From the NCBI GenBank assembly GCA_046758445.1, contig JBHIAE010000059.1:1-16553 (forward strand): DNA of 16,553 bases, given 5' to 3'. Of this stretch, positions 1 to 5,427 are shown in pieces (the stretch's first letter is position 1; every line of letters begins with the position of its first letter). Both the position numbers and the translations under genes were made by a program. The notes under the pieces were generated by a model. The model did not search any database. It had not been told where the DNA came from and saw nothing but the letters and a program-made list of their open reading frames with translations. The stretch comes from Candidatus Thorarchaeota archaeon (lineage in GTDB: Archaea > Asgardarchaeota > Thorarchaeia > Thorarchaeales > Thorarchaeaceae).

Positions 1-102
1 ACAAACAGGTTAGACATGGCAGCCCAGGTATAGGTGCTACCAAGAGCAGTGCATATGTGCCCCTGAAATAGAAGAGAATTGCAGCCTCTGCCTTGTGAGA
101 GG

Positions 103-885
103 TTAGGTTCTCTTGATTCTCAATCCCAAAGTCACAAGTATGATGATGGTTGCCGCACTGCCACTCACTGCAATCAACGTGAAGGGAATCTGGCCAACTG
201 TAATTTCATCATCTACAATGACATTATCTATTGCCCACTCTTTGTTTAGTGACACAATGAAGTACTCACAGGATTCCACATCTACTGTAGTATCCGTTTC
301 TTGAATCACTTGTATGCCATCTATCCATACTGTGATCTGCCCTTCTGCTGTTCGCGTCATATCGATATGGTTGATTCCTTGTTTTCCCTCGTCGATGTCA
401 AATTATCCCAGAGTTGTGTAGTCTGCGCCTACACGTCCTTGTATGGTGGTACCTCGCAGGAGTCTCAATGCAGCGAATGTCGAATCTCCCAGTACCACCC
501 GTTGTAGCTCCAGACAGTATCCATTCCAGTATTCAGGGTCTGTACTCATGAAGAAGAACTTTGGAATGGCACTCAAGTCAAAGAAATCGAGGTCATACTC
601 TATGTCAAAGCTCCACGTTTCTGATGTTACCGAGCTCTCGTGATAGATAGTACCAAGGATCACGCACCCCTCACAGTCAACCGGACTGTCCCCCACAACC
701 TCCAGAGTATGATTGGCCGCCGACCACTCGCCATCAACTACTGTCCATCCATCATAGTTTCCATCTGAGAAGTCGTCAGACCATAGAACCACAGCATCAC
801 ATGAGTTGACTCGTACTGACACCAGAAAAACCAGCAATAGTGCAGCGACTAGAAATTGACGAACGAGGGAGCTAGCGCTTCGCAC
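103..885 (-). pseudogene. Membrane-anchored surface protein (LamG/concanavalin-like beta domain) with one in-frame TAA at 403-405; pseudogene or read-through gene, 260 codons
   Basis: ORFs 403..885 and 103..360 share a frame and are joined by 14 sense codons: ...DYTTLG*FDIDEGKQGINHID-MTRTAEG. The product has a signal peptide, WSDDFSDGNYDGWTV motif, beta-rich core, and C-terminal TM (TLIAVSGSAATIIILVTLGL) with basic tail RIKRT. GGAGG lies 8 nt before the GTG start. The fold call is inference. Confidence 0.8.
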
Positions 886-1136
886 ATGAGTGACCTCCTA
901 TCCTGGTCAGATTCAATGCGAATTACGGCTACAGGGCGGCCAAAGGAACCACCTAGTTTCTAACAGCCAGCCGAGATTGCTCGCTGTGGTTTTTAACTAG
1001 ATTTCGGAGCCAGCAAGAAACGTGCCCGTCGAGGTCGGAGGATTTGTTCATGTGCTGATGGTCGAAGAACGATTGAAGCAGAACTCTCTTATCTCAAGAG
1101 TGCATCTAGTGTGTGGATTTCATGGGGGACTGGACT

Positions 1137-1415
1137 ATGGAATACATAATGTTCTGGGAATATGACTCGGCAGATCACAATGTTGTGATGGAGAAGCCTA
1201 GGCAGTATCGGAATCAAGTGAAGAAGAATCCTGACAGTCATGCAAAGTTCATCTCCAAGAACTACACAATGGTAGATGGCCCTGAGGGTTTCCAGTTGGT
1301 TGAAACTGACAATCCTGAGCATCTTGTCAGCATTGTTCGCCACTACATGCCCGAGGTGCGCTTCAGATTCGCTCCAATTGTAGAATTGAAGAGAGTCGAC
1401 CAGAAGAAAGAATAG
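1137..1415 (+). CDS. DUF3303-like small alpha/beta protein
   Basis: MEYIMFWEY...GFQLVETDNPEHL...YMPEVRFRFAPIVE resembles the archaeal DUF3303 pattern. ATG at 1137 is preferred over GTG at 1113. Confidence 0.7.
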   Translation: MEYIMFWEYDSADHNVVMEKPRQYRNQVKKNPDSHAKFISKNYTMVDGPEGFQLVETDNPEHLVSIVRHYMPEVRFRFAPIVELKRVDQKKE

Positions 1416-1663
1416 TCAGTTTGAACCGCACCTTGTCGATGTAAGTACTGGAGTGCGAAACCGAGTGCATGTCCACTATGCCTATCGCAGAGCGTCCGTT
1501 CGATTCCTGAACTCGATAGCCATCCGAAGAGGTCCCAGACATAGTTCTCGCGTCCTTGGTTAGAAGGTACTTCGCGTGCGATTCAGTTTCAAACGCATTA
1601 TGCCATTCAAGACTTCATATTGTCAACAGTAATCTTGGACTCGTATTGTGGAGCAAAAGTATG

Positions 1664-1705
1664 GGGTGGAACTCAGACAGCCGGAAGCATGTCTGGATCC
1701 CACCC
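1664..1705 (-). terminator. Strong 3' stem-loop (terminator-like or 3'-UTR element) of the heme-protein gene
   Basis: Minus strand reads GGGTGGGAT-C-CAGACA-T-GC-TTCCG-GC-TGTCTG-A-GTTCCACCC, about 17 bp including G.U pairs. It starts 6 nt after the TGA and is followed by CATACTTTTG. Confidence 0.55.
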
Positions 1706-1711
1706 ATTGTT

Positions 1712-3157
1712 TCAGATGCGGCAAGCAGGGATAGACTGTGGTTTTCTTACAAATGCTGCTATCGCTGCGACTAGCGCGACTGCTGAAATGCCAACAGGTG
1801 CCCATATTATGAGGACCTCCGCAGCCTGTCCTGGTTGTCCTTCTGGCCCAGGGGGTCCAGTCGGTCCCTCTGGTCCCTCTGGTCCAACAAGAGACGGCTT
1901 ATCAGCGAAGGTCAGAGACAAGGGTGTTCCAATGTGGAATGAGTGGCCCTCACCGCCGGTGTCATCCATCAGCGCAATGTCGAACTCATAGGAGGCTGAA
2001 AGATCATCAAACTGCACATCGTCAGGATGTCCAGTTACAAGCTTGCGAGAGATTTCTATGGTCCATGTACCAGCAGCCCATGCGGCCCCTTCAAGGACAT
2101 CAGCACGACTTCCTTCGGGCAGCTGCAGAATTCTCTCAGGGATAGCAATCGGTGATGCACCCGCAGGCACGGAGAGAGCTGTGTACTTTGCCCAGTAGCT
2201 GCTAATGGTGGCATTGTTCAGCCCAGTTATGTCAACAGCTTCACCACTCTTCAACTCATTCGCTGTGATGAGCATTGCATCATAGTAGTCGAGCGGGTCT
2301 GTTTCCATGTAGATGGGTGCTGCCTTTGCTGCATATGATACTCCATCGATTACGGTGGTGCTGCCAATGCGATTGTGGTAGTATGAAGATCTACCGGCGT
2401 CTCCGTATCTTCCTCCATCCGGGTCATTTGCTATGGGAGCGCCCATGGCATCAAGAGCAACATAACCAATGTATTTGTCATCCATGTATCCAAGAAAACT
2501 GGCACCGGTTCCAATGTGGAAAAGTGGAAGACTCCTCGCAGCCTTCATGTGCCACATGTCCGCAAACATGCCCTGCGTGTCAAAATAGGCTCCATCTTCA
2601 GAGCTGCTAACGTCTGTGGTGTGACAGTCGGTGCACACTCCATGAGCATCATCTATACTGTGGGGAGGTGTCACTTGATAGCCCGTGGAGTTTATCGCAT
2701 GGCATTTACTCACACATCCATCAGTATCAAATCCGGGTGTGTTCATTGACCACATCACGGCGAGTCTATCTTCAGACTACTCCTCAGCCAGCACATCATT
2801 ACTCTTATTGAATCCACTTGTGGGGTCCCATTGCCATGACCCACCCCGAGTCCAGTTGAAAGTTGGATCGGGGTATTGCGCCAGCATATAGAGATCAGAC
2901 TCAGTGTAAAGGAATTTGATAGTCACGTTCTCGCCAGTGGTAGATTGACCACTGATGAAACAGCCGTCCACTGCCACAACTAACTCTGGTGCTGTGTCCC
3001 ACACCGTATCGACTACTCCGTCTAAAGCTGGAGCATCTCTGGTGTAAATCGCTTCCACGTCAGATGCAGCCTGAGTGCTTGCAGTAGCCACGGACACTGC
3101 CGCAGTTGCACCAACTAGAAGCAATGCGAATATAACTATTCCAATCTGTTTACGCAA
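1712..3157 (-). CDS. Ethylbenzene dehydrogenase gamma-like (EB_dh/DOMON-type) heme protein with c-type heme motifs, collagen-like stalk and C-terminal TM; one in-frame TAG at 2777-2779 (481 aa if read through, otherwise pseudogene)
   Basis: ORFs 2777..3157 and 1712..2758 are in frame: ...NDVLAEE*SEDRLAVMWSMN. Seen: signal peptide, APALDG..D..W..AP DOMON-like start, LYMLAQYPDPT, GCVSKCH, CTDCH, DMWHMKAARS, WTIEISRKLVTGHPDDVQF, seven Gly-X-Y triplets, TM helix and RK tail. GGAGTGA SD precedes the TTG start. Confidence 0.85.
1823..1885 (-). repeat. Collagen-like Gly-X-Y repeat (GPE GPE GPT GPP GPE GQP GQA)
   Basis: Seven consecutive Gly-X-Y triplets between the globular domain and the TM helix, with repeated GGACCAGAG units in the DNA. 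Confidence 0.9.
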
Positions 3158-3214
3158 TCTAGATCACTCCTAAGTAAGACTTGGTGAGCCGTCCCGCATT
3201 AGTCAGGTATATCA

Positions 3215-3342
3215 GTGTTACAAAAATCATTTGGGTTTTTTATATAAAACCAAGGTTATTATTATAAAAGATATGATTTAAATTTGCGATAATCAGCAGA
3301 TTTTTGTAAATTTCAGATTGTAAGTAATGTAATTGCAAAAGT
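3215..3342. promoter_or_regulatory. AT-rich promoter/operator region between the divergent heme-protein and DUF362 genes
   Basis: Very AT-rich relative to the flanks. TATA-like TTTATATA (3238-3245) lies inside the near-palindrome TTGGGTTTTTTATATAAAACCAA (3231-3253). Perfect 11-bp inverted repeat TTACAAAAATC (3218-3228) / GATTTTTGTAA (3299-3309). Confidence 0.7.
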
Positions 3343-3637
3343 TAGGACACGGAATATGTCGGCCAGATCCGGACGGGCCCTAGTTTCAAGATTCGCAAGC
3401 AATAGTGTTAGACAATGACAGAATGAAACTGACCGCTAGGAGCAGGGGTCGAACGTCTTCGCAGAGCCATCCAAGACAACTTCGCACTAAAGAGCTGATC
3501 TTGAGCCTTGGAGTCCAATCCGGCCCGCAACAGGCTTCGCCACGAGGCGCAGAATGACACTGATACAAGGTAGATCCTTTCTCATCTCAAAGTTGAAGAA
3601 GACTAGGGTTCAAAGCAAATCATCAGTTCACTAGACT

Positions 3638-4489
3638 ATGAGGAGAAGATCCGTGGACTCAGTTGCTCTTATGAAGCATGGTGATAGTATCAGAGAAACT
3701 CTTGAGAAGGGACTTGAGCTCATCGGAGGTTTCGGGGAGCTGAAATCCCCGGTCATTGTAAAGCCCAACATATGCACAATATCAGACGGTACGGGCTTCT
3801 CAGTGACAGATGTGACAGTCGTAGAGGCTATCGTAGAACTGATTCTCGCGGAGAACGACGGCCTTCCGATTAGGATTGTGGAATCAGATAGTCAGAGCAA
3901 GTACACAGAAGAGGCCTTCGAGAAGTTCGGCTACAAAGGGCTCGAAGCCAAGATGCAGGGTGCAGGATTCGACGTTTCTCTGATGAATCTGAGTCAATCA
4001 GAGATGCTTCCCACGGACTTCAAGGGCGACTACTTCGACGATCCAGAGCTGCCCGATTTGGCCATCGGGCCGGGTAACTTCATTTCGGTCGCCGTAGCCA
4101 AGACGCACTATTTGACATTCCTCACAGGAGCCCTGAAGAACTTGTTCGGACTTCTTCCGAGAAAGGATCAATCATTCTATCATCCTCACATCAGTGAAGT
4201 AGTCGTCGACCTAGCTCGGCTTGTCCAACCAGACCTCTGCATAGTTGATGCAAGAGTTGGCATCGAAGGATGGAATGGCCCGATGACTCGGAAGCTCGAT
4301 GCATTCATTCTCGGACGCCAACCAGTTTCCGTAGACGCCACCATGGCCCGAATTATGGGATTTGACCCTGAGAGAATTTACCATCTAGTGGAAGCAAGCA
4401 GATACAATCTTGGAACACTAGACCCGACTGTTCTTGGACAGAGTATTGAGTCAGTCAAAGTGAGATTCAATCCACCGGTCCCTGTCTAA
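3638..4489 (+). CDS. DUF362 domain protein
   Basis: Motifs VIVKPN, IVESD, KTH...TGALKNLFG, PDLCIVDA..G.EG..GP and PVSVDATMARIMGFDP are typical of DUF362. Confidence 0.9.
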   Translation: MRRRSVDSVALMKHGDSIRETLEKGLELIGGFGELKSPVIVKPNICTISDGTGFSVTDVTVVEAIVELILAENDGLPIRIVESDSQSKYTEEAFEKFGYKGLEAKMQGAGFDVSLMNLSQSEMLPTDFKGDYFDDPELPDLAIGPGNFISVAVAKTHYLTFLTGALKNLFGLLPRKDQSFYHPHISEVVVDLARLVQPDLCIVDARVGIEGWNGPMTRKLDAFILGRQPVSVDATMARIMGFDPERIYHLVEASRYNLGTLDPTVLGQSIESVKVRFNPPVPV

Positions 4490-4584: not shown

Positions 4585-5427
4585 CTAGGCTTCAATAACA
4601 GAGATATCGTCATCACTCTGCGCCCCAAGGCCTATTCGTACTGCGTGCTTAATCTGAGGGACCTCCCAGACTGGTAGATTGAGTCTGTTTTTAGCTTCAT
4701 AGCTCTGAAGGATTCTCACTCCCTCAACGTCTATTGCGACCATGTCAGTGCCTGTTAAGATGTAATTAGGGGACTCCAAATCTCCGCTTGTTGGACCACC
4801 AGTCACGAACACTTTCCTTGCGTCCATGACAATCAGAGTAGGTCTGAAGTGGGAGGCGAGGTCTGCGATCTTCTGTTCAAGTCTGCGCGCATGCATCTTG
4901 AGCCGGTCTGCTCCCTTGATTGTGCCAACTAGGAGCTTCATGGCGCCAGTGAAGCGAGCAAAACGGTGTGTCTTGAGACAAGGTGCAAGCACAAGCTTGT
5001 CGTATCGCGTTAGCGCTTCCCCGACGTGTGCGTTCTTCATGTAGACACCTATGTCGAGCTTCTGTTTGATCCATTCACCTTCGTCAAGGAAAGCCAGTTC
5101 TGCCCCCTTCTCTTCTGCAATTGAAAGAAGACCATTCTTCTCTGCTACCTCTCTTGTATTGAGCGCGAACATCGATGACTCGACAACCCTCAGCTTTGAG
5201 GGTCCTGCTTTCAAGATAATCGTCATCAAGGCGCGAATGAACTGTGGGTCACTTGCTGCTGGAAATGGGTCAGCCGAGTTCAGGTTTGGCTTCAGTGTCA
5301 CGTCATCACCCGGTTGAATGAACCTGTCTATCCCACCCAGCAGCTCAAGAGCGCGGTTGATATGCTTGTCCAGAGAATCCTCTGACCTTACTCTGGCAAC
5401 ATGCGTCTTTCCGTTACTATCGTTCAA
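4585..5427 (-). CDS. DUF362 domain protein
   Basis: ALELLGGIDRFIQPGDDVTLKPNL, LKTHRFARFTGAMKLLVG, PTLIVMDA...TGGP..G and DMVAID. Confidence 0.9.
   Translation of the reverse strand: MNDSNGKTHVARVRSEDSLDKHINRALELLGGIDRFIQPGDDVTLKPNLNSADPFPAASDPQFIRALMTIILKAGPSKLRVVESSMFALNTREVAEKNGLLSIAEEKGAELAFLDEGEWIKQKLDIGVYMKNAHVGEALTRYDKLVLAPCLKTHRFARFTGAMKLLVGTIKGADRLKMHARRLEQKIADLASHFRPTLIVMDARKVFVTGGPTSGDLESPNYILTGTDMVAIDVEGVRILQSYEAKNRLNLPVWEVPQIKHAVRIGLGAQSDDDISVIEA

Follow-up and report, generated by a model that had tools for sequence, protein, structure and literature searches.

An in-frame amber codon in a predicted surface heme-protein gene of a Thorarchaeota genome is probably a recent nonsense mutation

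Introduction

The family PF09459 (EB_dh) comprises gamma subunits that bind heme in enzymes of the type II DMSO reductase family, among them EbdC of ethylbenzene dehydrogenase and NxrC of the Kuenenia nitrite oxidoreductase. The heme of EbdC is of the b-type, with methionine and lysine as its ligands. The archaeal gene described here shares with these subunits the HMM family, the beta-sandwich fold and a signal peptide, but the subfamily to which its product belongs differs in its invariant CxxCH motif, in its large insertions, where a second CxxCH is found, and in having a collagen-like linker and a membrane anchor at the C-terminus; the gene also stands alone, with no molybdoenzyme alpha or beta genes adjoining it. 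Judging from sequence, the invariant CxxCH implies that members of this subfamily would carry a covalent, c-type heme.

The gene is interrupted by an in-frame TAG. In some archaea, UAG encodes pyrrolysine through the pylTSBCD genes, classically in methylamine methyltransferases. Among Asgard archaea, pyrrolysine is confined to the Sifarchaeia, with 'remnant' tRNA-Pyl genes in some Thorarchaeia metagenome-assembled genomes (MAGs; PMC9723677). Those systems and the locus studied here have in common that UAG interrupts, in frame, an archaeal gene with no other defect, but in the genome of the latter PylS, PylB, PylD and tRNA-CUA were not found, UAG is much used as a terminator, and the UAG is not conserved in homologues.

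Ordinary young, single-lesion nonsense pseudogenes of prokaryotes offer a closer likeness. Features in common are a stop codon that one transition separates from the sense codon found in homologues, a distal part with no restart or export signal, an accessory gene lying in a variable slot, and premature TGA, TAG and TAA codons in other genes of the same genome. There is no essential difference between such pseudogenes and the present case; the gene is unusually intact otherwise, which points to a recent event.

The interrupted gene and its predicted product

The window, by which we mean the whole analysed stretch of 16,553 nucleotides (contig JBHIAE010000059.1 of assembly GCA_046758445.1, Candidatus Thorarchaeota archaeon), contains the interrupted gene at positions 1712..3157 of the minus strand. 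It comprises 481 codons, including the in-frame TAG, and ends with a terminator at 1712-1714; translation of the 481-codon frame (3157..1715) reveals the TAG as its single in-frame stop. The start codon is TTG, with GGAGTG 8 nt upstream, and the whole gene is predicted to encode a secreted, C-terminally anchored c-type heme protein of the EB_dh family. The premature amber is codon 127 (2777..2779, minus strand). It is embedded in GAG GAG TAG TCT GAA GAT AGA CTC GCC GTG ATG TGG, or EE*SEDRLAVMW, and directly precedes the conserved SEDR motif; these codons had been read correctly in a preliminary description of the locus.

Upstream of the stop, the N-terminal fragment of 126 amino acids (2780..3157, minus strand) contains a signal peptide at about residues 1-27, with the hydrophobic leader IGIVIFALLLVGATAAVSVATA, followed by the first beta-strands of the EB_dh/CBM9-like sandwich. 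CBM9_1 gives a weak match to residues 45-111 of this fragment, and strands are predicted between residues 33 and 118 in an AlphaFold model. The C-terminal 354 codons (1715..2776, minus strand) encode the SEDR motif, the remainder of the EB_dh domain, the linker and the membrane anchor. This downstream piece begins VMWSMNTPGFDTDG; as the preliminary description had remarked, it has no hydrophobic leader or signal peptide of its own and could not be exported alone, nor is there a ribosome-binding site usably spaced before its internal GTG and ATG codons.

Both heme-attachment motifs lie after the stop, as had also been noted, on the same side as the anchor, while the signal peptide lies before it. 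The first CxxCH, CVSKCH, occupies residues 148-153 (2699..2716, minus strand), and its Cys148, Cys152 and His153 are invariant in a family alignment of 20 sequences. The second, CTDCH, at residues 175-179 (2621..2635, minus strand), is within an insertion common to most, not all, of the aligned homologues. The heme of the window protein is presumably c-type, attached through CxxCH. The genome contains CcmC/F- and CcmE-type genes and should thus be able to mature c-type cytochromes; three further EB_dh paralogues encoded in it have a signal peptide and an anchor, but are without this CxxCH. Towards the C-terminus, a collagen-like, Gly-Pro-rich linker, GPEGPEGPTGPPGPEGQPG (1817..1894, minus strand), leads into a hydrophobic helix, the putative membrane anchor, and then a basic tail (1742..1816, minus strand; helix 455-470 in the model). 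The anchor architecture is shared by the homologues P0002, P0004 and P0007, as seen in the alignment.

Open reading frames had been listed at 2777..3157 (126 amino acids) and 1712..2758 (348 amino acids, with a GTG start at 2756-2758). Exactly six codons (SEDRLA) separate the TAG from this GTG, and they do contain the EDR motif recognised in the preliminary description: Glu129 and Asp130 are invariant and Arg131 nearly so in the 20-sequence alignment. The claims that the split is not a real gene boundary and that the product is an EB_dh-like heme protein were borne out by the profile search, in which PF09459 matches the joined 481-residue read-through protein from residue 71 to 403 in one stretch (81.3 bits against a cut-off of 33.3 bits, E = 1.5e-22), covering profile positions 25-230 of 236. 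Since this match crosses the TAG without a break, the stop lies inside a single domain. A profile search of the genome recovered the same EB_dh match, with one TAG inside. The pair of frames at 2780-3157 and 1712-2758 should accordingly be annotated as one broken gene.

An AlphaFold model calculated from 20 homologues is only moderately confident (pLDDT 72.7, pTM 0.74). Its top Foldseek matches are 7b04_C (NxrC), 2ivf_C (EbdC) and 1i82_A, each with a probability of 1.00; for the pair EbdC 2ivf_C and NxrC 7b04_C, the E-values are 5.7e-8 and 9.2e-6. CBM9 modules are among the best structural matches of the model.

Homologues at the position of the stop codon

In a collection of 5.8 billion protein clusters, 43 homologues were found. 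The closest full-length ones, P0002 (479 amino acids, 74% identity) and P0004 (475 amino acids, 62% identity), have the same architecture, and in both the codon aligned to the TAG is CAG (Gln). The codons flanking it differ from those of P0002 and P0004 mainly at synonymous third positions (AGT/AGC, GAT/GAC, GTG/GTT, CTG/CTT and GAG/GAA). Together, the CAG of both nearest homologues and the synonymous flanking differences indicate that the region is coding and collinear and that the lesion is one C>T transition. Excision of the stop as a mini-intron with a bulge-helix-bulge (BHB) motif was ruled out: the window protein is collinear with P0002, has the synonymous third-position pattern and contains no extra length. 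The whole gene is collinear with the intact homologues of 475-479 amino acids.

At the stop column, glutamine is present in P0002, P0004 and several others, and elsewhere Asn, Pro, Ile, Ala, Gly or Val is found; the column being variable in the family, no special residue appears to be needed there. UAG is not kept at this column in the homologues of the 20-sequence alignment, and no homologue is naturally split at the stop position.

Among homologues with a named source, the nearest belong to Chloroflexi MAGs. P0007 (50% identity) is encoded on archaeal contigs, adjoining genes for TBP, TFIIE and Trm56. Among 40 related genomes no orthologue was found, only linker or anchor matches to other proteins, and scans of genome contigs and metagenome contigs gave nothing closer than 36% and 49%, respectively, over fragments. 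The P0001 family is an EB_dh subfamily with an invariant CxxCH that occurs in archaea and Chloroflexi, stand-alone and without molybdoenzyme partners; its members often have a membrane anchor, as well as collagen-like Gly-Pro linkers at either end. This anchored, CxxCH-bearing subfamily is uncharacterised and is put on record here.

Genomic setting

The genome is a MAG of 3.25 Mb in 113 contigs, 92.7% complete. Among its predicted products are an AdoMet synthetase of archaeal type and an actin homologue of full length (438 bits), which identify it as archaeal and consistent with Thorarchaeota (Asgard).

The interrupted gene is located in a variable slot of 2.1 kb (1504..3581), between a DUF3303 gene and paired DUF362 genes. 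Contigs of two congeners, L036 (GCA_964345915.1) and L037 (GCA_012975005.1), align to window positions 1-1503 and 3582 onward, with 84-91% DNA identity in the aligned flanks. Their own slots (L036:4914-5929 and L037:963-2005) contain about 1 kb of DNA unrelated to the window, with a SAM-methyltransferase gene in L036 and two small ORFs in L037. The EB_dh gene is thus accessory. No convincing repeats were found at the slot edges, and the GC content of the gene is unremarkable.

Premature stops elsewhere in the genome

Open frames of at least 200 codons end with TAG in 45% of cases, with TGA in 42% and with TAA in 12%. Long same-frame open segments parted by one stop occur with TAG, TGA and TAA in a ratio of 165:148:42, in the same proportions as terminator usage. 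TAG is the commonest terminator and the split-frame counts are proportional to terminator usage, which rules out a genome-wide reassignment of TAG.

From all 4,057 junctions of the type open frame, stop, open frame, we selected those across which a paralogue encoded elsewhere in the genome runs without interruption. With a loose filter, 107 were found (62 TGA, 36 TAG and 9 TAA), some of which may be off-frame matches between repeats. A strict filter, which required flanks of 80 codons or more, alignments of 40 amino acids or more per side and E <= 1e-10, retained 21 (10 TGA, 9 TAG and 2 TAA). All three stop codons are found, roughly according to codon usage, which is a signature of mutation and not of codon-specific decoding. 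Judging from these counts, young nonsense lesions, or else remnants of mobile elements, may be numerous in the genome.

A second broken gene is present in the window itself. At 103-885 (minus strand), a gene of 260 codons with a signal peptide and a C-terminal anchor is interrupted by a TAA at 403-405, about 2.4 kb from the TAG; the codon is TCA (Ser) in congener L036, and the same TAA is present in the Logan assembly described below.

Age of the lesion and proposed explanation

We consider it about 85% probable that a recent nonsense mutation has produced a dead gene. A recent change of CAG (Gln) to TAG, by a single C>T transition, would have truncated an accessory gene for a cell-surface heme protein of the EB_dh/DOMON-like kind. 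Translation would stop at codon 127 and yield a 126-residue stub bearing the signal peptide; the distal 354 codons, with the heme-attachment motifs and the anchor, would be left with neither a start signal nor an export signal. The Ccm system acts outside the membrane. Without start and export signals, the distal part could not reach this extracytoplasmic heme-attachment machinery, and the gene would be functionally dead. We infer that no useful protein is made from the broken gene. The preliminary description had put forward a CAG>TAG nonsense allele as the simpler alternative to recoding, and the CAG of both nearest homologues favours it.

The lack of other lesions suggests that the event was recent. 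The 481 codons contain no further stop and no frameshift, and all 41 family-invariant residues are kept. With P0004 as the outgroup, the window protein has 24 private amino-acid changes and P0002 has 34; downstream of the stop, the numbers are 17 and 23. The proportion of non-synonymous differences, pN, is about 0.15, against a pS of about 0.8; synonymous sites are saturated, and for this reason only pN and the relative-rate count were used, not dN/dS. As there is no sign of relaxed evolution, the mutation should be young; a less likely possibility is that leaky read-through still allows some expression of the gene.

The second of these possibilities is the best surviving alternative to a recent nonsense mutation, although we consider it improbable. 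Low-level natural read-through of the UAG, for instance by a near-cognate Gln-tRNA(CUG), would supply some full-length, exported heme protein, and the allele would be hypomorphic and maintainable. The intact frame, the absence of further decay and the lack of rate acceleration are in its favour; considered by themselves, the intact frame and unaccelerated rate fit a very recent lesion and, equally, a gene under selection through read-through. Moreover, the homologous residue is glutamine, as would be expected from decoding by a near-cognate tRNA-Gln, and tRNA-Gln(CUG) genes are present in the genome. Against it, intactness is expected just as much from a young lesion, and the premature stops of all three types in other genes point to plain mutation. 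TAG being the main terminator of the genome, efficient read-through would not be generally tolerated. No structure that might stimulate read-through was found either, PYLIS-like or otherwise: the 126 nt from the stop fold no better than shuffled sequences (z = -0.81). An Rfam search of the window gave no family.

An extension of the read-through explanation is that the amber, partly read as glutamine, together with other single-stop genes for surface or secreted proteins, forms a tolerated or exploited throttle or switch in a lineage without pyrrolysine; we regard this as very unlikely.

The amber codon in a second assembly

An error of the consensus, or a minority allele in the bin, would also simulate a broken gene: the population would then mostly have CAG, and the TAG would be an error or a rare variant. 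MAG consensus sequences can indeed fix minority variants. The protein search returned a 341-residue match, P0003, from the Logan assembly of SRR29324601, encoded on a 12.7-kb contig (L014) that aligns with the window over 10,737 bases at 99.85% identity. Seven SNPs separate the two, together with a single 9-bp indel in the collagen-like linker, a length polymorphism of one PEG (Pro-Glu-Gly) unit at 1877-1885 between the MAG and the Logan assembly; these differences are evidence for a heterogeneous population. Yet the TAG recurs in L014 and divides the gene there in the same way, into ORFs of 126 and 341 amino acids, so that the stop is present in two assemblies from different pipelines, and the 126-residue stub is recorded from both NCBI and Logan. 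The site is outside homopolymers and repeats, and no intact copy of at least 90% identity exists among about 15 billion proteins, the best full-length match being that of 74%. The TAG is probably not an assembly slip, as an independent assembly agrees, though both assemblies may share one sample; that the population mostly has CAG is very improbable.

Decoding capacity for UAG

Programmed recoding, in which UAG would specify pyrrolysine or, by means of a dedicated suppressor tRNA, some other amino acid, is close to refuted. It could draw on the occurrence of pyrrolysine in one Asgard class, the remnant tRNA-Pyl genes of some Thorarchaeia MAGs (PMC9723677) and the incompleteness of the present MAG. 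In the latter, no remnant tRNA-Pyl was found. A search for PylS (TIGR02367) at E <= 0.001 found nothing in the 92.7%-complete genome, nor did any of 17 genomes of the genus give a match above the cut-off; in Methanosarcina acetivorans, used as a control, PylS scored above the cut-off. The best matches of PylD (24.9 bits, cut-off 150) and PylB (35.7 bits, cut-off 348) in the genome are below their cut-offs as well. The single MttB-family gene of the genome has no internal stop.

Many tRNA genes of this organism contain introns, with aragorn finding 16 tRNAs without the intron search and 36 with it. In neither mode was a tRNA-CUA detected. The 33 Infernal tRNA matches do not include a CUA anticodon either; the four that aragorn had missed are His GUG, Lys CUU, Glu CUC and Val GAC. 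With only about 36 tRNA genes recovered from a 92.7%-complete MAG, this absence of pylT and pylS is not absolute. A candidate suppressor, 'tRNA-Stop(tta)', proposed by aragorn in intron mode (G000:C40:12865-12972; L035:266-373), was rejected, because its anticodon loop according to Infernal is CUGUCAC, that of an intron-containing tRNA-Asp(GUC). This tRNA-Asp(GUC) gene has an insert of about 30-40 nt in the D-arm region.

The preliminary description had raised pyrrolysine or programmed read-through, and this part of it did not stand. Its picture of a false gene boundary within one EB_dh heme protein, a downstream part that cannot be exported alone and a nonsense allele as the simpler cause did. 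Besides the missing PylS, PylB, PylD and tRNA-CUA, the orthologues contradict recoding, with a sense codon in place of the stop, an ordinary glutamine (CAG) in the two closest and a variable residue in the rest, and so does the use of TAG as the most frequent terminator.

Equally far-fetched is a tolerated gene fission, in which the exported stub of 126 residues and a C-terminal protein with a translation start of its own would both function: in-frame GTG and ATG codons do occur 6, 7 and 10 codons past the stop and the downstream part is among the ORFs reported by gene callers, but the stop cuts a single beta-sandwich domain, the CxxCH sites of a downstream piece without a signal peptide cannot meet the Ccm system, the sole Shine-Dalgarno-like sequence, GAGGAG, is the pair of Glu-Glu codons and, at 21-24 nt before the internal starts, is too far away, and no homologue is naturally split here.

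By itself, the broken gene is of little significance. It does show cleanly what distinguishes an in-frame amber in an Asgard MAG from an expansion of the genetic code: the codon of the homologues, the inventory of pyl and tRNA genes, terminator usage and the numbers of premature stops of each type across the genome. The broken gene also adds to the signs of many young nonsense lesions, of all three kinds, in this genome.

Other genes of the window

Beyond the variable slot, two convergent DUF362 genes (3638-4489, plus strand, and 4585-5427, minus strand) are located beside a gene for a TPR protein, in an arrangement conserved in the congeners. Further on, between 6851 and 9752, there are genes for a 2,4-diaminopentanoate-dehydrogenase-like protein, a class-III aminotransferase and a flavodoxin, possibly constituting an ornithine/lysine fermentation module.
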